Below are positions 4,643 through 14,589 of a stretch of 64,000 nt of DNA, in pieces. The translations under genes and the position numbers were made by a program. The notes beneath the pieces are model-generated. The model was not told the DNA's origin. It worked only from the letters and a program-made list of their open reading frames with translations, and did not search any database. This DNA comes from Cirrosporium novae-zelandiae (Eukaryota). The stretch's first letter is position 1, and each line of letters begins with the position of its first letter. The DNA lies in contig JAPETS010000002.1 in the NCBI GenBank assembly GCA_026023565.1, positions 930,001-994,000 of the forward strand, in the 5' to 3' direction.

Positions 4643-5755
4643 TCATTGCTCCTTTTTGTCATTTGATGTATCACTGTTAGGACTCGTTGTAGGATCAACA
4701 TTTTGACCATTGTCCTCCTCCTCCTCATCGTCGTCTAAGGGAACGTCCATTACACGTTCACCTGCTTTCTCAAGAGTCCTGCAGCTCCATGTTCGAACTG
4801 CTTTGTAGACGCCCTATTCGCTGTTAGCAAAGATATCTAAGACAACAATGGTGGAAGGGTTATTCACCCATAAGAACGTTCCAACTCCAATCATAACAAC
4901 GATCCAGCTTATAGAAGCAAGCCTATCTCTTCCGTTATTCCCAACCCTTACATTACCTCCAATGACACCGGATGTCCTTAAATTCCAAAATTGCCATGGC
5001 GAGAGCGCAAGTAGTACTTTAACGAAACTCAGTAGTCCAAGCGAGGCTAGCCCTTTGACAAAATGCTCTAGCCATGATGTTTCTTCATCGGTAGTGAGAA
5101 GGGTTTCAATCTTCTGAGATACGGTGGGTTTGGAGAAGGGAAAAGAAGATATTGTGTCATAAGGATCAAGATACAAATTGATTATAGGGTCAGCAATGAA
5201 ACCGAGGAGGAAAATCGCAAGAAGAAGTATTGAAAATGTAAGTATTAATTGTGTAGCAACACTGTTGATCCATCTGCCCCATTGCATTCTTTCAAGCCGA
5301 TATCTGAACCCACATGTGGGGCATTGCCAGAAGTTTCTTCGACCATATGCTGGATCAGCATGTCTCCATTGCTGAAGGCAACCTTCGTGAACATATCTTG
5401 AGGATCCTTTGCATTTGCATGGCCTAATTAGTCTCCCAGATTCAGGGTCAGAAGACTCATACGTGACTCGAGGCTTTGATCGCAGAATTTCAGGGAGGCT
5501 ATCTGACGGCGTGTGGAAGGTTGGTTGAACTGTCTCAAGACAAATTCTGCAGGTCCTAGGACCCCATTGTTTTTGTTTAGGAGGTTGTCGTGGATGTGGC
5601 GCGTCCGACTGCGGTTCTTCCCTTCTCGCCTCTGCTGTATCTGAAAAGTTGAAGGATCCAGGAAGAGGAGGATTGTCTCTTAGGTGACGGTTGATGGTTG
5701 GAAGGACGTCCGGCCAATGCCATCCGGATGCTGTATTGAGAGTACTGGCACTCAT
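4643..5755 (-). CDS. RING-CH (RINGv/MARCH-like) membrane E3 ubiquitin ligase
   Basis: CRIC...PCKCKGSSRYVHEGCLQQW...CPTC RINGv motif followed by hydrophobic segments. One intron at ~4867-4813; last exon GVYKAVRTW...DKKEQ*. Confidence 0.88.
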
Positions 5756-6235
5756 GTTGCTGTGGCTGTTTCAAACCTCAAATTAATCATGACTTTGCAT
5801 AAAATACAATCACTGCTAAAAGCAATAGCTTTGGAGGATAGAATTATTCATCGAGGAAAGAGTTATTTAAGAATGAAGTAACCATCATTCTTATAGAGAT
5901 GACACGTTTTGATCAACCTGGAGAATCAGATTTCAAAGAAACTCATGGAGAGACGGAGACGGAGACGGATATTGGTTGAGCCGTTCCCGCTGTTTAAAAG
6001 ACCAAGTCACATGACTGATACTGTACTGTGGGCGGATTTGCGATTGTGAAAGCTCCGCTTAGACCAAGCTTCAAGTCGCGATTCGTATAGCAGCTAGCTG
6101 CCTTAAAGTCAACCATTGCCTTGCACCACAAAACTTCCTTCAGCTTACCATCTTTACTTGAGCCCTTTCAGTCTTTCAAATCCAATTCTTCTCTTTTCTC
6201 CCAAGGGCTGAGAAAGCAACTTTGAATTTGGAGCC

Positions 6236-7282
6236 ATGGCTGACCGATATTCCTTCTCTTTGACAACCTTCAATCCTAGGTAAGAATATCTTGAGAATAT
6301 ATAACTAAAGATATCTGCTGATTAGCCTAAGTGGTAAACTTGTTCAGATTGGTAATAACAAACAACACTCTCACAGAGAAATTTCTTTTACTAACCAACC
6401 CAAGAATATGCTTTGAATGCCGTCAACCAGGGCGTCACAGCTCTTGGTATTAAAGGTCAGCATTAAACTACCCTGCTATGACAGTATATCTGACCAGGGT
6501 TCAGCCACGAATGGAATTGTTCTTGCTACCGAGAAGAAATCTTCCTCCCCCCTCATCGAAAACCCTTCTCTCTCTAAAATCTCTCTCATTACCCCCAACA
6601 TTGGAATGGTCTACGCAGGCATGGGCCCAGACTATCGTGTACTTGTTGACAAAGCCCGAAAGGTGTCTCATACTGGTTACAAGCGGATATACAATGAGTA
6701 TCCTCCAACCAGGATATTGGTTCAAGATATAGCAAGAGTTGTCCAAGAAGCCACACAATCAGGTGGTGTCCGGCCATACGGTGTCAGTTTATTAATTGCT
6801 GGCTGGGATGACGGAGTAGAACCAGAAGATGAAAAAGTCAAGGAGAGCGTTTCTACAGAAGCTGAAAAAAGGAAGGCCTCAGGAAAGACTGGGGGTATTC
6901 TAAAAGGTGGCCCTAGCCTTTACCAAGTAGATCCGAGTGGAAGCTATTTCCCATGGAAGGCAACTGCGATCGGGAAGAGTGCAACCAGTGCCAAGACATT
7001 TCTTGAGAAGAGATATACAGAAGGCTTGGAGCTCGAGGATGCTATCCATATTGCTCTGTTAACTTTGAAAGAAACTATTGAGGGGGAGATGAATGGAGAG
7101 ACAGTTGAAATCGGTAAATTTGATTTCTCACCTTTGCAAAACTTATGCTGACTTTCAATATAGGCATTGTTGGACCCCCAGCAGACCATCTTTTGGGATA
7201 TGAAGGCGTTGAAGGCGCACAAGGTCCCAGGTTCCGGAAGTTGAGCAAAGAAGAGATCGAGGATTACCTTACGAATTTGTAA
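6236..7282 (+). CDS. PRE8: 20S proteasome subunit alpha type-2
   Basis: Spliced [42 protein letters not shown]..., [34 protein letters not shown]; four introns. Confidence 0.95.
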
Positions 7283-7963
7283 TGCCATAGAGATAGCCGT
7301 ATGGAGTGAATAAAGTAGACATTATCCAAGGACATCAAGTGGGAAGAGAAACCATGGTCCATCAAGGTCCGGTGTCTGGTGCTTTGGTTTATGCTCTCTT
7401 GAATTTTAGTTACGTCCTTGAACATCAGCAAATGTTGCTTCAACATGAGCCGAGGGAAAGCACTTCAGTTTCGTGGTAGCAAAGTGCAGAAAGCCTCGTA
7501 GGGGTTTCTTTCTTGAAGCCAAGACGGCAGCCCCCTGAGCAGAAACTTTGATTATTATCAAATTTCAAGAGTGCTGCTTATTGTATATCCGTCACCTACG
7601 CAAAGACTGCGAATATCCTGTCTAGTCCTTTACATCCTACTCTAGTTGCCCTCTACGCCTCCCACTGACCTTTTATATCATGATCTCCCCTGTTTCGCCT
7701 CTATAAATCAACAAAGTACATGGCACATCTACAGCCGAATTATTTAGGGGTTAAATAAATATATTACCTGAGTGACCAGCACACGAGCCGCCAGTATACA
7801 GGAAATCCTCTTGTATTAGGAACCACGTGACGGTATCTTATCTAAGGCCACAAAACTTATGTATAGTCTACGTCACACTTTCTCTTTCCATTTACAACTC
7901 CCTGCTCCAGAAGGTGACCATAACTACAGTTTCTCAGAGAACCTCAGTATCGGCTTAGTTACC

Positions 7964-8575
7964 ATGGTTTACCGACCTCTCAACTCTTTAATTACCATTA
8001 AAGCCATTCGCACTATTCGTAACGCTCGACTCTTCCATGCAGCAATTGGTACTTTCGTGGCCCTCGACTCCAGCGGGAAGCCGGTCACAAGGGAAGTCAA
8101 GCTTATTCACGGGAATGCTGGTGAATCATATATTTTGATTCCTCCGGAGATCGGCTTTGCTCTACAAGCTGGCAGCATACCATCCAATGACATATCCCTT
8201 AAGAAGGATTCGGAAAGCTATGCGTTGACGTTCTTTCATGAGACTAAGACTTTTGTACATGGTGAGTAGCCTACCTCAGACCAAATCTTGGTAATATTGC
8301 CAACTGAGCCCTTGGAGAATCATCTCCTGGCTTCCCTCGACTTGAGATCCCTCAAGACCTACCTAGGCAAACCAAAACCAACAAAAGTCCTGCCACCCTT
8401 TTTCTTACCGGTGTATCACATGAAATCACTCTAGATGGGACACCTGATGGTATCTAAAAGCTTCTCAACATAAATAGCGGACAGATTCTAATATCAAATA
8501 GCCAAATTTGCTGCAATGGCAACAGAATCATATCAAAGACTGAAACCTTCCTTGGATCGGCTGAAGGACATGTAA
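7964..8575 (+). CDS. Small hypothetical protein (~165-170 aa) with a basic, acid-free N-terminus (possible mitochondrial presequence)
   Basis: ACCATGG start. Exon 1 7964-8261 (GTGAGT donor); exon 2 from ~8309 or 8318 (non-ideal GAG acceptor) reads GFPRLEIPQDLPRQ..SPATLFLTG..ITLDGTPD; exon 3 ends LDRLKDM* at 8575. Frame stays open across the predicted splices. Confidence 0.65.
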
Positions 8576-9307
8576 TATACTTACAATAGACGGTTCCTCT
8601 ATGGCAGATTTAGAACTGCATCTCATTTTGAGGTCTCTAGACATCGTTCATTTGCTTATCCTTTTCAAATACTGGGCATTGATCATATATATTAGAGGCT
8701 GCCCATTATCCTGTATTCTCCTATTATTGATAACTCAAAGCAATACCCTTCATTCTCACACTCTCAAAGCATATATAGCCCCCAGTCCCTTGTTTCACCT
8801 GCTTTCTAAAATACATTTCAGATAAAGTCCACGCTTGACTTGAATAAGATCAGTGATGTTATTGAATTGGACTGGAGCTGGATTAGAGTTTCGCTCCGGT
8901 TAGTCTAAAGCAGTGCAATTTTTATGCTTGCAGTAGATTGCTTAATGACGGCAGTTCCTAGTTGCTGCCAAACCATGAGTCTTATAGAAACATCAATTGG
9001 CTTCACTCTCATGTACTCGTGGGGTAAAATCTCAAGTTACAGGCTGGGATACAGTGCCAGGTGTCAATAATCTAGACAAGACTATTCCAAACCCCCCAAG
9101 CCCTTGGAAGGTAATGTAGTCGACAGATAAAGAGTGCAATTGATTAAACAAACCTCTGGAAGCACTTCAATACATAGAAGGAAATAAGACCCGAACAAAG
9201 CAAAACGAACGAGCATGCACACAACACAAACCAATCGCAAAACTGAATACTTCCATCACTCTGCAACCCGCGCTAATATAGTTCAATGCCCAACGGCCTC
9301 ATCGCGA

Positions 9308-9751
9308 CTAAACGACCCCCTCGCTTAACTTAGGTACAGCGGCCACGATGCGACTATAGAATTCGGCCAGTTCCTCGACGGTACACTGATTAGTGCAGAC
9401 GGCAGCGTGGGCCGTAGCCAAGTCTGCGTTGACGGAAGCCTGAGCCAACAGTGTTTCCTGCAGTCTGTATCCATTGATCCTAAGGAACATGGCTGCTGCG
9501 ACAAGCGCTGTTCGCTTATTGCCATCCTGAAAGGCATGGTTCTTTATTATTTTTTTGGAGAGGATTGCGGCCAATGTGAAAGTATTGTCGGTTTGAGTGT
9601 AGTGGTTTACATTCATCGGTGAACTTACTGCAGACTCTAACAAGGCGGGCTGGATGGGGTGACCGCCTTCAACAACTTGGCGGGCATGGAGGTGTTGAAT
9701 TTGGTTAGCAGTCAAGAAACGAAAGGTCCGAGTAGCAGCCTTGGAGAGCAT
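9308..9751 (-). CDS. Fic/DOC family protein, Doc (death-on-curing) type
   Basis: Intronless 147-aa ORF with LLESAV..P, LAAILSKKIIKNHAFQDGNKRTALVAAAMFLRINGY, i.e. the Doc-type HxFx(D/E)(G/A)NKR motif followed by FL.xNG. Confidence 0.92.
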   Translation of the reverse strand: MLSKAATRTFRFLTANQIQHLHARQVVEGGHPIQPALLESAVSSPMNVNHYTQTDNTFTLAAILSKKIIKNHAFQDGNKRTALVAAAMFLRINGYRLQETLLAQASVNADLATAHAAVCTNQCTVEELAEFYSRIVAAVPKLSEGVV

Positions 9752-10239
9752 GGCGACTTCTTGAGTAGATATTTGAGAAGTTGTTCGTTGCTGATGAACA
9801 GGATATGTATGTAGCTAACCACGAATTTGCTCCAAAATCGTTAAGAAAAGAGACTTTTGAGTTTAGGCCTATCGGATCCTTAAGCACAAATAGACTGGCT
9901 CCCTTGCCGACCACGTCAACTTTAAATAGCCAAAATCGTAATGATTTATCCAAAACTTATAAAAGTATTCTACACAGCACCTCCTTAGACTATATCATTT
10001 AAACTATAGTTGACAACGAAATCATGGTCTTCACATTCTTTTATTACTTCTTCTAGATGCTTAGCATTCTGAGGTTTTTGCCTCGTATCTGCCCTTCTAG
10101 GATGACATACCCTATTATTCACACAACTTCCCCGCCCTTGTTGTATTCTCAGGCAGTTCTACAGCCGCCATTAAAAAATTGACTACAACTATCCCCACCA
10201 TCAATACATTGCGTGACTTATTTACTACAGTCCTTCAAG

Positions 10240-13200
10240 ATGGAGGGACAAGGTCTTCCTCAAGCTATCATCCGTCCCCGTGGATACCAGCTTGAAATGC
10301 TGGATGAAAGCATCCGACAAAACGTCATAGTAGCAATGGATACAGGCAGTGGGAAAACACAGATAGCTGTCCTTCGTATAAAAGCTGAGCTGGAACGGTG
10401 TCCCCCAAGCCAAATAGTCTGGTTTCTTGCCCCAACAGTTGTGTTAGCTACTCAACAATATGAAGTTTTCTGCTCCCAACTTCCCTCATACCAGAGCCGA
10501 GTTCTGACCGGAACGGATGGCGTTGATCGATGGGGTGAACAGCGAATCTGGGATGCCATTTTGGAGAATGTTAGAATTGTTGTGTCAACCCACCAGGTAC
10601 GGCCGTTCCCCATCTCCAAAAGGATCCAAGGATAGGTTGATTGTTTGTTCTAGGTGCTCTTAGATGCTCTCACACATGGATTTATACGAATAGAGAGGAT
10701 ATGTTTATTGGTATTTGACGAAGGTAGATGTCTTATACATCCCAAGGTTTAGATACCTGTTCTAGCTAACTAATATTAGCTCACTGCTGTACCCATAAGC
10801 ATCCTGCAAGTCTAATAATGAAACACTTTTATCATCCCAGGGTCTCCCGTGGAGAGAAAGTACCTTATATATTAGGATTGACAGCTAGTCCTGTCATTAA
10901 CGCAAAAGCGGGCGAATTGCAGTGGGTCTATGCCTGGTTGCGTGTCGTATTTCGACTGAATATTTTTCAGGAAACTAGAAGAAAGCCTTGATGCAACTGC
11001 TAAAACACCTAGACAGAATCGGCAGGAATTGCTAAAATATGTGTACCCTCCCGTGCTATCCAAAGTATCGTTTCGAACAGATACCGCAGATCATTCTTTC
11101 GTTCTCGGGCAGCTCATCCAAGTCTTTCAGAACCTGGAAATATCTGAAGACCCCTATGTGAAATTGTTGCTCAAGGGCCGTGATGAAAAAAGCGTAAAAC
11201 TACTTTCAAAGGCTCTTAATACTAGGAAAACATTCTGTCAAGATTCATTCAAACGCCTCTGCCAAAGAAGTATACATATTCACGAAGAACTTGGACGATG
11301 GACCTCGGATTGTTTTATTAAGTCGTGTATCGAGCAATTCCAGAAATGCAATGGAGGAGCATCCGACCCATTAATTGACTGGGATCATAGAGAGAAATCC
11401 TATCTACTCAGAAAGCTCAACTCGATTCCTATATCGTCGGTGAATGAAAAATTTGACGAAACAGACATAAGTCTGATAGCCCCGAAAGCCGAGAGTCTAA
11501 TTGATCTTCTCGTCAGAGAACACAAATCCTCCTTTACAGGAATCATTTTCGTGAAACAGAGAGCCACAGTAGCGATGCTAGCAAAGCTTCTCTCCGTACA
11601 TCCCCAGACTAAGGACAGATTTTCCATCAGAACCTTTATAGGAAATCAGAGCAGGAAACCTGACATCTTTGAACTCTTGGCTATCAAAGATCAGAACGAC
11701 GCGCTCGACGATTTGCGCACAGGTAAAGCAAACCTTGTCATTTCTACGAGTGTCCTCGAGGAAGGGATTGATATCTCTGCCTGCAATATTGTGATCTGTT
11801 TCGAATTACCACCGCACTTGAAGTCATTCATTCAACGCCGTGGGAGGGCAAGAAAAGAAGAATCCAAATATATACTGATGCTTCCAGAAGACGACATGTT
11901 TGTGCGCGTGGAGAAATGGGAGGAGTTAGAAGAGCAAATGAAAGTCATCTATATGAATGAAAGGCGTAAATTCGAGAAATTAAGGGAGCTCGAAGCAATG
12001 GACGAGGATTGTAAACAAGTTCTTAGTATCGAAAAAACAGGCGCAATTCTAACATTCGATAACGTCATCTCTCACTTGAACCATTTTTGTGCCACTTTAC
12101 CTGGTGATGCATATATGGATCGTCGTCCAGAATATGAATTCCGCGGATTTGAGTCGGGAAAGTTCATCTCAGCAAAGGTGACTCTTCCAAGCGCAGTTGA
12201 CTCCGCTCTTCGAGAGCATTGTGGTACTTCCAAGTGGCGCACCGAAAAAACAGCTGCGCGGGACGCTGCATTCCAAGCATATCTGGCTCTTTATAAAGCT
12301 GGACTTGTTAATGATAATATGTTACCTCTATCTGAACCTGCATTGAAATTTTCGGAATCTCAAGTTGAAAAGCGAGCAGCAATTGTGGAAGTAAATTGCC
12401 CTTTGAACCCATGGGTGGAATTGATCCAGCAATGGAACAGCCATGAAACATTTTGCGCAATTACAATAGATACTGGTGGATTTCTTCCCAAGATGGTCAT
12501 GCTTCTCCCTGGTCGGGTTCCTATCCTGCCACCCTTGACTGTACATTGGGATACGACGAAGAAGTTCAACGTTTCGTTTCTTGAGGTCGGCGATTGTCAG
12601 CAATACTCATCTCACTTTGAAGTGGCAACCTTAATTACGCAAACTCTACTTCTGTCGTTCTTTAGAGCTAAACTATTAGATTCGAAGCTTGATTTTCTGG
12701 CTCTTTTTATCCCCGCGACTGATATCGAGTACCTCGAAAGTTGGCATCGTTCCGTAGAGGGGAAAATCTCAGGGCGGGAAGCCCTGGCGATGAGTCATGG
12801 CGTTGGATCTTTCCCCTACGGTCTTCTACGAGATTTGACGAGCGGGTTAACGTCTCCTGGATATATCCACAAGAATGTTGCCTTAAAGCTGCCTAAATCT
12901 AGTCGGAATCCAAAAAAGCTGTCAGAAGAATCAGGGGAAATATCTCCCGTAGATCCCCAGGAGGAACTCTGCTTCGAGGCTTTGAGATATCCTAAACGAA
13001 TGGATTTCTTGCATGAGATCCCATCGTCCAATATTGACTCGAAAAACCCTAACGTCGATTTAGCTGTAGCGAACTGTGTCTTTGAGAAGCTACCCTTGCC
13101 CTATGTACAATTCACTACTTTGATACCTTCTATTATCCACCACATTGAAACCCATCTAATCGCTTGGATTTTGACAGAGTCTCTATTAGCACCGGTGGGC

Positions 13201-14589
13201 ATCTCAAACTTAAACCTTGTGAAGATAGCAATCTCCCCGTCCGCTGTTAGAGAGCCTCTGGGCAACTATCAGCGTCTTGAATTCTTCGGCGATTCAATGC
13301 TCAAATATTTTACCACGGTCACCATATTAGCCCAACATCTAACGTGGCACGAGGGGTATCTATCTGCATGCAAAGATCGCATCGTTGGCAATGCACCGTT
13401 GTGCAATGCTGCTCTGCAAATTAATCTTCCTAGGTTTATCTTGGCCAAACCATTTACTGGAAGCAAATGGCAGCCTCCCTATAAGTCAGATCTATTGAAC
13501 CCGGCTCAGGCTACGCGAGAGATGTCAACGAAGACACTTGCAGACGTCATGGAATCTCTGATAGGGGCATCCTTTCTTGACGGAATGGAGGAAAAATGTC
13601 TTCGATGCTTGCGCGTTTTGATACCAAGGGTCCCGTGGCTAGCAACAAAAGATAGTGTCAGCAAGCTCAATGATTGTGTGCCTATCAACATGGGCTTTAG
13701 CCAATTTCTAGGTCCACTAGAGAGGCTTATAGGTTACCAATTCAAGAAAAAGACTCTCCTTGTTGAAGCCCTGACGCATCCAAGCCATTCGGGATCCTTT
13801 ACAACTGCCAACTACCAAAGATATGAGTTCCTAGGAGATGCAGTTCTGGACTGCATAGTCGTCAACAAAATATTTCGTCACGAAAAAATGTTTCCCCATC
13901 CAGAAATGCACACGCTTCGCGAGGTAGTTGTCAATGCAGATTTCCTCGCCTTTCTCTGTCTAGAATTATCTGTTATGGAGAAACGGACCGAACTAGACAA
14001 AACAAAGATAACCCCAACCCTCATAGATTCGGCACAAAGTTTTCATATCTGGGAATTTATGAGACACACAAATCCCGAGCTCCCCCTTGTCCAAAAGGAG
14101 GTCATGAATCGCCACAAAGAGCTCAGAGAGAGTATCCTTGAGGCGCTTGAAAAAGGCGACAAATATCCCTGGGCATTACTCTTGAGGGCTAAATACAACA
14201 AATTCTTTTCCGATCTTATTGAAAGTATCACGGGTGCAGTTTTCATTGATTCTGGGGGCTCTACCGAAGCCTGTGAAGGCTTCTTAGAAAAATTGGGGGT
14301 ATTAAAATATTTACATCGGGCAATGGAAGGAGGAGTCCGGATAAAGCATCCAAAAGAGCAACTTGGCATTCTAGCAAACGACCAGAGAGTTAGATACAAG
14401 CATGGAAAAGAGCAGAGGAAGGATCGAGGAGAAAGGTTATGGTGCAAAGTTTATGTTGGGGATAGAGAACTGGTCAGCGTTGGGGATGGTGTATCGCCAG
14501 AGGAGGTTATGACGAGAGCAGCAGACGAGGCCATAGATATCCTGATGACTGAACGAGGAACCAGTAAAGAGGATGAAATGATGGAATGA
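10240..14589 (+). CDS. dcl2: Dicer-like protein 2
   Basis: [19 protein letters not shown] helicase start, spliced FDE-AH motif, HELICc ([13 protein letters not shown]), Dicer dimerisation region, two RNase III signatures ([18 protein letters not shown]) and a C-terminal dsRBD (HPKEQL). Three short introns between ~10597 and 10970. Confidence 0.93.

Follow-up and report, generated by a model that had tools for sequence, protein, structure and literature searches.

What does a gene for a Doc-type Fic protein, the toxin of the Phd–Doc toxin–antitoxin (TA) pairs of phage P1 and Salmonella, do in a fungal genome? TA systems are regarded as prokaryotic, and the question is raised by an open reading frame (ORF) in a 64,000-nucleotide stretch of Cirrosporium novae-zelandiae DNA (contig JAPETS010000002.1 of assembly GCA_026023565.1, positions 930,001 to 994,000), hereafter the window. 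We find that the window Doc belongs to a single fungal clade that is maintained by purifying selection, and that a second gene—here called the partner, conserved next to Doc and itself under selection—accompanies it. The explanation that we consider best, and to which we assign a probability of roughly 50%, is that Doc and its partner form a conserved two-gene module acting as a eukaryotic TA-like switch, probably in the mitochondrial matrix.

The window ORF is a Doc-type Fic protein. Fic (PF02661) is the sole Pfam domain within its 147 residues (residues 13–90; 54.3 bits, E = 2.5e-14, cut-off 24), and NCBIfam TIGR01550 (DOC_P1) matches at 59.8 bits (E = 2.7e-16, cut-off 38.65), so both profiles lie above cut-off and the K-type Fic motif that a preliminary description of this locus had read from an intronless fungal ORF is upheld by sequence and profiles alike. 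The N-terminus reads MLSKAATRTFRFL and residues 72–83 read HAFQDGNKRTAL; the window sequence holds no in-frame ATG 5' of the ORF start. The motif conforms to the Doc subfamily pattern H-x-F-x-(D/E)-(A/G)-N-K-R, of which H72, D76, N78, K79 and R80 are invariant in 33/33 aligned sequences and, together with G77, in 38/38 fungal sequences. The best sequence match among solved structures is P1 Doc (3k33_A, E = 1.6e-5), whose motif lines up with the NKRTAL of the window protein. Given the conservation of the K-motif, the window protein is by homology probably a P1 Doc-like protein kinase, and this copy has kept all catalytic residues while the C-terminal tail of the clade is gone. The features on which the argument turns are as follows:

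7964–8575, plus strand: partner gene, three exons, 167 amino acids, convergent to Doc.
7964–8261, plus strand: partner exon 1, residues 1–99 and the first base of codon 100, conserved in fungal loci.
7964–8035, plus strand: presequence-like partner N-terminus, MVYRPLNSLITIKAIRTIRNARLF, with no acidic residues and five K/R; predicted local distance difference test score (pLDDT) 54–56 in the model.
8318–8449, plus strand: partner exon 2, the most conserved part (…YPRLEIPQDLPRQ…ATLFLTGVSHEITLDGTPD), 62–73% identical to distant loci.
8502–8575, plus strand: partner exon 3 with TAA stop; the C-terminal helix (residues 146–167, at 8507–8572) is the predicted Doc-binding helix.
8576–9307, no strand: spacer of 732 bp between the two convergent stop codons, from the coordinates of both genes.
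9308–9751, minus strand: Doc-type Fic protein gene, intronless, 147 amino acids plus TAG, from the ORF list, Pfam Fic, TIGR01550 and membership of the fungal Doc clade.
9512–9538, minus strand: catalytic motif HAFQDGNKR, residues 72–80, K-type as in P1 Doc, with codons read from the window sequence.
9647–9751, minus strand: N-terminal ~35 residues of Doc, basic with one acidic residue (E28), a candidate non-cleaved import signal that overlaps helix 1.
9308–9310, minus strand: premature TAG stop where the closest homolog, P0002, has Gln (…PEWSQEILQYRNEAVEY); the P0002 tblastn alignment runs through it.
9283–9309, minus strand: out-of-frame tail remnant, SRDEAVGH-stop against YRNEAVEY-stop, from three-frame translations.

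The partner stands out by linkage. We searched the proteins encoded next to Doc in the window against 29 fungal-type metagenome loci (L081–L109, E ≤ 8e-23; the bacterial-type loci that begin with L110 were not counted), and the sole neighbor to recur among them is an ORF at 7820–8269 that belongs to the partner gene, while the Dicer, proteasome and RINGv neighbors were found in 0/29. The partner adjoins Doc in 20 of the 29 loci and in three different orientations: the order is convergent in 17 loci (gaps of 113–836 bp), tandem on the same strand at L096 (2430–3414; 10 bp from the Doc stop to the partner ATG), upstream of Doc on the same strand at L103, and on the other side of Doc at L106. Nine loci lack it; seven of these have <1 kb of sequence downstream, for L104 it is 1.6 kb (with only 350 bp upstream), and L102 (6001–6339) has no partner within 6 kb on either side and carries a degenerate Doc motif, HSDQDGYKR. 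The conserved adjacent cognate gene of a type II TA system is therefore present on these counts (20/29, against 0/29 for the other neighbors), and no partner homolog occurs in 131 bacterial Doc loci. The partner introns are GT–AG (56 and 52 nt) and the spliced product equals protein P0122 exactly over its 167 amino acids.

Both genes are selectively maintained. Pairwise ratios of nonsynonymous to synonymous substitution rates (dN/dS) for Doc, taken over 19 distinct coding sequences (the window and metagenome loci) and restricted to pairs with dS of 0.05–2, have a median of 0.22 over 51 pairs; the window Doc against L083/L084 likewise gives 0.22, and four very close pairs, with few substitutions, give about 0.7. 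Many loci are near-copies of one another. Partner exon 1 is represented by 15 distinct sequences including that of the window; their median dN/dS is 0.30 over 32 pairs.

Some loci are unusual in their arrangement. The spacing at L096 is operon-like for a fungal contig. Two apparent Doc–partner fusion proteins (P0147 and P0169) were set aside because each seems to join two tandem genes in one gene model, L096 having a stop and a separate ATG; P0147 joins the L096 Doc and partner by a probably spurious splice. At L095 (4841–6441) a second, divergent Doc paralog type (…STPSTSFKFLTTAQILRLHSRY…, with a different C-terminus) lies head-to-head with the canonical Doc, and this type occurs also at L101, L103, L104 and L105, at L103 alone downstream of the partner. 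L102, a single case, fits the partner being needed only with an active Doc. The Doc copy at L098 (1676–2110) has 11 in-frame stops over 146 aligned residues, resembling the effect of repeat-induced point mutation, and its partner homolog is still adjacent. In the window, partner intron 2 (8450–8501) lies at the exact boundary of the beta-rich body (…LDGTPD) with the predicted Doc-binding helix, so that the helix has a small exon of its own.

How did Doc reach these fungi? The preliminary description had proposed a bacterial Doc origin in preference to an affinity with FICD/HYPE and had remarked that Doc-annotated proteins exist in other fungi, and profiles, structural matches and phylogeny agree with the first point, database records with the second. 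A word-indexed search with Doc returned 621 relatives, headed by P0002–P0065, which are of the fungal type (E = 1e-60 to 2e-13, 39–73% identity) and of which every named one is from Pezizomycotina; bacterial Doc relatives rank after them, from about E = 6e-13. The named homologs, often recorded as “DOC family protein,” come from Karstenula, Melanomma, Zopfia, Glonium, Penicillium rubens (Pc06g00320), Phyllosticta, Neofusicoccum, Cordyceps, Fusarium mundagurra, Aspergillus filifer, Xylographa and others. The evidence on fold comes from P0002 (73% identical to the window protein) and not from the window protein itself. The AlphaFold model of P0002 (pLDDT 92.1, predicted template-modeling score [pTM] 0.88) has the compact all-helical Doc fold, and its five best Foldseek matches in the PDB are all P1 Doc chains (template-modeling [TM] score by target 0.84–0.87, E = 7.5e-6 to 2.5e-5), whereas FICD/HYPE chains match weakly (E about 0.04, TM by target 0.26–0.29); a grouping with FICD/HYPE, named beforehand as the contrary outcome, is not seen.

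Maximum-likelihood analysis of 48 fungal and 126 bacterial Doc sequences (135 columns, quick search) gives a tree whose fungal rows make up one side of one branch (Shimodaira–Hasegawa-like approximate likelihood ratio test 100, stem length 0.96). Pleosporales, Penicillium and Sordariomycetes each cluster within the fungal clade, which fits mostly vertical descent with losses, and no particular bacterial sister of the clade stands out among the 126 bacterial sequences. These patterns are best explained by one old bacterial-to-fungal transfer that would have been followed by mostly vertical inheritance in Pezizomycotina.

The partner protein, for its part, carries few marks of known families. 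Its AlphaFold model (26-sequence alignment; pLDDT 87.1, pTM 0.78) shows a disordered stretch (residues 1–24), then a beta-rich body that includes a single short helix, and finally a long helix at the C-terminus (142–166). This fold has no Foldseek match in the PDB at E ≤ 0.001 (best 0.035), a best wide VIA-align Z of 4.0, no usable ESM Atlas match and, by sequence against the PDB, a chance match only (E = 1.6); it is possibly new, although a lack of structural matches is no proof of novelty. Exhaustive HMMER searching placed 204 cluster representatives in the family at E ≤ 1e-3 (74 at E ≤ 1e-10). Ten homologs whose records were consulted come from Zopfia, Aspergillus, Blastomyces, Penicillium, Epichloe, Microsporum, Elsinoe, Massariosphaeria and Scytalidium, all recorded as “hypothetical,” and all 16 members for which a name was looked up are annotated “hypothetical” or “uncharacterized.” None of 123 members scores above cut-off against Pfam, nor do any of 8 against NCBIfam or of 4 against PADLOC; AtaL (PF08982) was rejected as an identification, its match (E = 0.006) lying below cut-off and being shown by 1/123 members only.

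Might the partner nevertheless descend from a bacterial antitoxin? The closest bacterial Doc genes (31–49% identity) stand mostly with MazE/AbrB-type antitoxins (motif in 53/73 upstream ORFs, …LxxLAK end in 61/73), and hhalign compares the partner with these MazE-type Doc antitoxins at P = 0.0049 and a probability of 7%. The C-terminal part of the partner scores 19.6 against the MazE-type antitoxin helix (P = 0.0024), a score that 0/100 column-permuted controls reach under a null that is lenient because it destroys helical periodicity; with 123 partner sequences the same comparison gives P = 0.028, and hhalign probabilities across runs are 2–12%. A common ancestry of the partner and the MazE-type Doc antitoxins is possible as judged by these profiles.

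Where the two proteins would act is suggested by their N-termini. Those of the partner differ in sequence and are uniform in kind (e.g., MVYRPLNSLITIKAIRTIRNARLFH, MLRYLPRTLRGGSSRAVRRHFH and MLRLLPRAIPRPGRLKCSRRSFH): averaged over 26 full-length members, residues 1–25 contain 0.23 acidic residues (none in 21/26) and 4.77 basic ones, while the rest of the protein holds 3.03 acidic and 2.31 basic per 25 residues, and R-x-hydrophobic-H/Y ends the presequence-like stretch in 21/26. An acid-free, basic, disordered N-terminus with such a motif has the classical features of a cleavable matrix presequence, and the partner possesses all of them by composition, motif and predicted disorder; we consider it probably mitochondrial. 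One family member, P0137 (298 amino acids), has an N-terminal extension with a weak match (E = 5e-4, below cut-off) to Aim19, the altered inheritance of mitochondria protein 19, and may be a merged gene model.

The N-terminus of Doc is a different case. In fungal Doc (n = 47, complete N-termini) the first 30 residues hold 0.32 acidic and 3.77 basic residues (net +3.45), with the first acidic residue at a median position of 35; in bacterial Doc (n = 54) they hold 3.33 acidic and 2.54 basic (net -0.80), with the first acidic residue at position 7; from residue 31 on, acidity is equal (0.110 vs. 0.105). The loss of acidic residues is therefore clade-wide, derived and confined to the N-terminal ~35 residues of fungal Doc. 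Yet only about 8–10 residues precede the Doc fold, RFLTA aligning with the bacterial start MxYLT, so that the supposed presequence overlaps helix 1 of the domain; in the P0002 model pLDDT is 96 already at residues 11–20. Some non-cleaved matrix proteins are known to have an acid-free, basic N-terminus as part of their mature structure, and the loss fits mitochondrial import of Doc without demonstrating it. The import that had been proposed for Doc is thus sustained in part: the clade-wide acid-free N-terminus and, indirectly, the presequence of the partner speak for it, while the original argument from 13 residues is weak and the stretch lies in the folded domain. Whether Doc itself may be mitochondrial is, to our minds, evenly balanced.

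Prediction suggests that the two proteins bind. Doc was modeled with partner residues 24–167 in three runs alongside three controls, under a mark that is reached by 51/78 solved complexes and 2/108 mismatched pairs (39/65 and 2/126 for eukaryotes). The complex scored 0.82, 0.83 and 0.82, the controls 0.62, 0.01 and 0.00; at least 57% of contacts are common to the runs, and partner pLDDT is at least 40 (41–42). The confident interface lays partner helix 146–167 on Doc G77, K79 and R80, on residues 83–116 (the two following helices) and on residues 17–26. These models make binding reasonably likely, and the predicted placement of the partner helix over the Doc catalytic loop resembles the way in which Phd neutralizes Doc: residues 52–73 at the C-terminus of Phd are described as a helix sufficient to bind and inhibit Doc (PMC9207808).

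We propose the following mechanism. The partner would be a fungus-specific protein with a cleavable-looking presequence, a beta-rich domain without recognizable fold and a conserved C-terminal amphipathic helix, and this helix would dock across the catalytic loop of Doc and keep it from acting, in the manner of the Phd C-terminal helix in bacteria. Given a mitochondrial-looking partner and an acid-free, basic Doc N-terminus, the matrix would be the most likely site. ClpXP controls Phd, and matrix proteases may by conjecture control the partner level and so free Doc, for which dormant spores or stress would be conceivable occasions. Once free, Doc would act on the bacterial-type mitochondrial EF-Tu, phosphorylating its conserved threonine and so bringing translation in the organelle to a halt. 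Doc is described as phosphorylating that threonine in EF-Tu (PMC9207808), and mitochondrial EF-Tu is reported to carry the same threonine, with the kinase unknown in mammals (PMC7912454). On this homology, mitochondrial EF-Tu would be a tentative target, more doubtful than the binding itself. In its fullest form the proposal would be that Pezizomycotina run a complete nuclear-encoded TA switch in their mitochondria, with a Doc of bacterial origin, an antitoxin of new fold invented by fungi, import of both, and release of Doc on loss of the partner; we regard that full combination as rather unlikely.

A number of observations weigh against a TA-like switch in the matrix. An upstream antitoxin of known family (Phd/YefM, MazE/AbrB or RHH) in one operon with Doc is not found: the genes are convergent and hence not co-transcribed in the manner of a bacterial operon, and Pfam, NCBIfam and PADLOC detect no homology of the partner to known antitoxins. 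Its similarity to the MazE-type antitoxins is weak, confined to the C-terminal helix and weaker with the broader alignment. Partner homologs are named in several genera that may or may not carry Doc. The putative presequence of the partner is called from composition and motif, and the basic N-terminus of Doc is part of a folded domain, most family members starting with an ordinary MAS…; since Doc residues 17–26 lie in the predicted interface, the loss of acidic residues may reflect partner binding and not import. In the complex prediction, which was made without alignments, the margin over the best control (+0.20) is the exact minimum, one unrelated control reaches 0.62 and the partner fold is uncertain at the pLDDT given above; because Phd–Doc complexes are solved, the model may in part recall their helix-in-groove geometry. 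Finally, the window copy is truncated at its C-terminus and pseudogenes occur elsewhere (L098), so that the module is dispensable in some lineages.

Several of the same observations can be read in other ways. Doc may be cytosolic, acting for example on eEF1A or another GTPase, with the mitochondrial partner linked to it indirectly or by regulation and the basic N-terminus serving contacts to partner or substrate. The few residues ahead of the fold, the many members that start MAS… and the position of residues 17–26 in the predicted interface all suit this account, as does the EF-Tu threonine, which is conserved in eEF1A too. It leaves a loss of acidic residues that extends clade-wide over ~35 residues and at the N-terminus only, and a tightly bound, presequence-bearing partner would occupy another compartment; we hold a cytosolic Doc to be improbable.

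The pair could also be a selfish or conflict module (spore killer, addiction, incompatibility or defence) in place of a physiological regulator. Tight linkage that survives rearrangements is what such a module would show, named Doc matches are patchy within genera, and the extra paralogs (L095), the multi-stop pseudogene (L098) and the dead-motif, partnerless copy (L102) point the same way. Against these stand a fungal tree that roughly tracks taxonomy, dN/dS values (0.22 and 0.30) that show none of the fast change typically seen in drive elements, and the position of the window pair among housekeeping genes, and we give the selfish account a low probability. A partner that is a substrate, adaptor or activator of Doc has a slim chance of being the right description. 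A substrate would also touch the catalytic loop at K79/R80, and the partner has a near-invariant Thr141 immediately ahead of the helix and is rich in Ser/Thr at 150–153; but the predicted contacts run along a long helix packing lengthwise on Doc, like Phd, and Thr141 lies outside the confident contacts.

Is the Doc gene of this genome perhaps a decaying, functionless relic? The partner gene and the truncated Doc C-terminus are both additions to the preliminary description, and the latter bears directly on this point. The window ORF ends …AAVPKLSEGVV-TAG where P0002 has …AAIPEWSQEILQ, and in the P0002 tblastn alignment (window AAVPKLSEGVV-stop-SR, P0002 AAIPEWSQEILQYR) homology extends beyond the stop (SR vs. 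YR); because it does so and what follows of the tail can still be read in another frame, a nonsense change followed by a frameshift is indicated. The tail (…EWTPEIxxYRNEAxEY), a confident helix (residues 143–151) in the P0002 model, is present in 33/63 fungal homologs with complete C-terminal regions and lacking in 30/63; L083/L084, the P0003/P0005 group, L096 and others are without it, and this recurrent loss makes it seem dispensable. L081 (6380–6480) and L082 (same region) have an in-frame TAG at the conserved tail W codon (…EIEE-stop-RADIMEYRNAATEY-stop) with an intact tail after it, a pattern explained either by a nonsense mutation that is recent and recurrent or by readthrough of the stop codon to yield two isoforms. 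The C-terminus of P0009, P0010, P0017 and P0018 is likewise …EIEE, and P0011, P0013 and P0015 end in …AIE(A/V/E). Decay is thus suggested by a nonsense codon and a downstream frameshift that removed a conserved tail, and it is contradicted by the remaining 147 open codons with every catalytic residue intact, by the dN/dS against L083/L084, by the many tail-less homologs and by an intact partner gene; we see little prospect that the gene is a relic.

Contamination by bacterial DNA or an assembly artefact, for which the bacterial family name alone speaks, is of negligible probability given a 1.48-Mb contig with Dicer-like, proteasome and intron-containing genes on either side of Doc and the position of Doc inside a fungal clade set apart from 126 bacterial sequences. 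The Doc protein is on record from a 1,477,223-base contig, and Doc is a fungal chromosomal gene because Dicer-like, proteasome and RINGv genes flank it there. The neighbors are:

4814–5770, minus strand: RING-variant (RINGv) protein gene, an ordinary housekeeping neighbor.
6417–7151, plus strand: proteasome subunit gene, an ordinary housekeeping neighbor.
10240–14589, plus strand: Dicer-like gene with a DEAD/ResIII helicase, a Dicer dimerisation domain and two RNase III domains.

The Dicer-like gene and Doc are divergent, their start codons lying ~490 bp apart, and this adjacency is not kept at other loci. A classical antitoxin gene adjoining Doc was looked for and rejected: the 22 small flanking ORFs (8270–9328 and 9705–10295) have no Pfam match, to an antitoxin or otherwise, at E ≤ 0.1 (a single chance match at E = 0.63).

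In the literature fungal Doc matches appear as strays, noted in 2008–2009 among “bad poisons” (PMC2446400) and in “a few fungi” (PMC2686095) and not taken further. In agreement with the preliminary description, which knew of no established function for fungal Doc, we found no paper on its function or partner in the open-licence PMC and bioRxiv literature that we searched. Expression evidence comes from relatives, which are transcribed and regulated in two species according to published tables: AFUA_8G06180 is among the genes up-regulated during conidiation (ratio 3.3; PMC5838799), and TERG_02161 changes by -2.25 with terbinafine (PMC6963840). The Doc gene alone is therefore already known as an annotation, while the two-gene module with its presequence-bearing, family-less partner is undescribed as far as we have checked.

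Selection, a dedicated linked partner and two products that look suited to mitochondria turn an orphan annotation into a testable system. If the proposal of a TA-like switch is true, a eukaryote would have domesticated a bacterial growth-arrest module and aimed it at the compartment that has a bacterial-type translation apparatus; as a natural type II-like TA module shown to work in a eukaryotic organelle the pair would be a first, its Doc would be a candidate for a class of mitochondrial EF-Tu kinase, and the partner would define a new protein family (the 204 cluster representatives), possibly with a new fold. Some carriers are plant or human pathogens, and a mitochondrial-translation switch tied to conidial dormancy would interest mycologists.

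How does the fungal pair compare with systems already known? Among the closest are the fungal “DOC family protein” records of Penicillium rubens (Pc06g00320), A. fumigatus (AFUA_8G06180) and T. rubrum (TERG_02161), of the same clade by name and size, to which neither the records nor the papers assign a function or partner. The metazoan AMPylase FICD/HYPE is likewise a eukaryotic member of the Fic superfamily; it differs in having G where Doc has K79, in its weak fold match and in its architecture, Doc being a protein of 147 amino acids with one Pfam domain. The window Doc lacks the GNGR motif, the TPR and membrane anchor and the FICD-like fold, the TPR and anchor being features described for FICD (PMC2686095). 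The class I Fic pairs VbhT–VbhA and FicT–FicA offer a Fic toxin inhibited by a small helical partner and are distant fold matches (E = 0.012–0.09), but they are AMPylases with a GNGR motif. Class I Fic antitoxins carry an inhibitory (S/T)xxxE(G/N) motif. The bacterial Doc proteins paired with MazE/AbrB antitoxins are the nearest non-fungal sequences at the identity given above; their antitoxins end in a conserved helix, …YRxxLxxLAK, to which the partner C-terminus, …LKPSLDRLKDM, is weakly similar by profile, although the HH probability (7–12%) is not significant and the partner has no MazE Pfam match.

Phd–Doc of phage P1 and Salmonella is a further close system. Relative to it, the fungal gene is nuclear, the partner is a separate, convergent, intron-containing gene in place of an upstream cistron, and the partner lacks a Phd/YefM signature and has a presequence and a beta-rich domain of unknown fold. 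Fungal Doc is about 23–25% identical to P1 Doc; three residues are deleted after helix 1, an insert follows NGYxLQ, and 33/63 homologs have the tail. The two systems nevertheless share the Doc fold, the K-type motif H-x-F-x-D-(A/G)-N-K-R and TIGR01550 membership, and the partner is predicted to bind by a C-terminal helix over the active-site region, as Phd does with residues 52–73.

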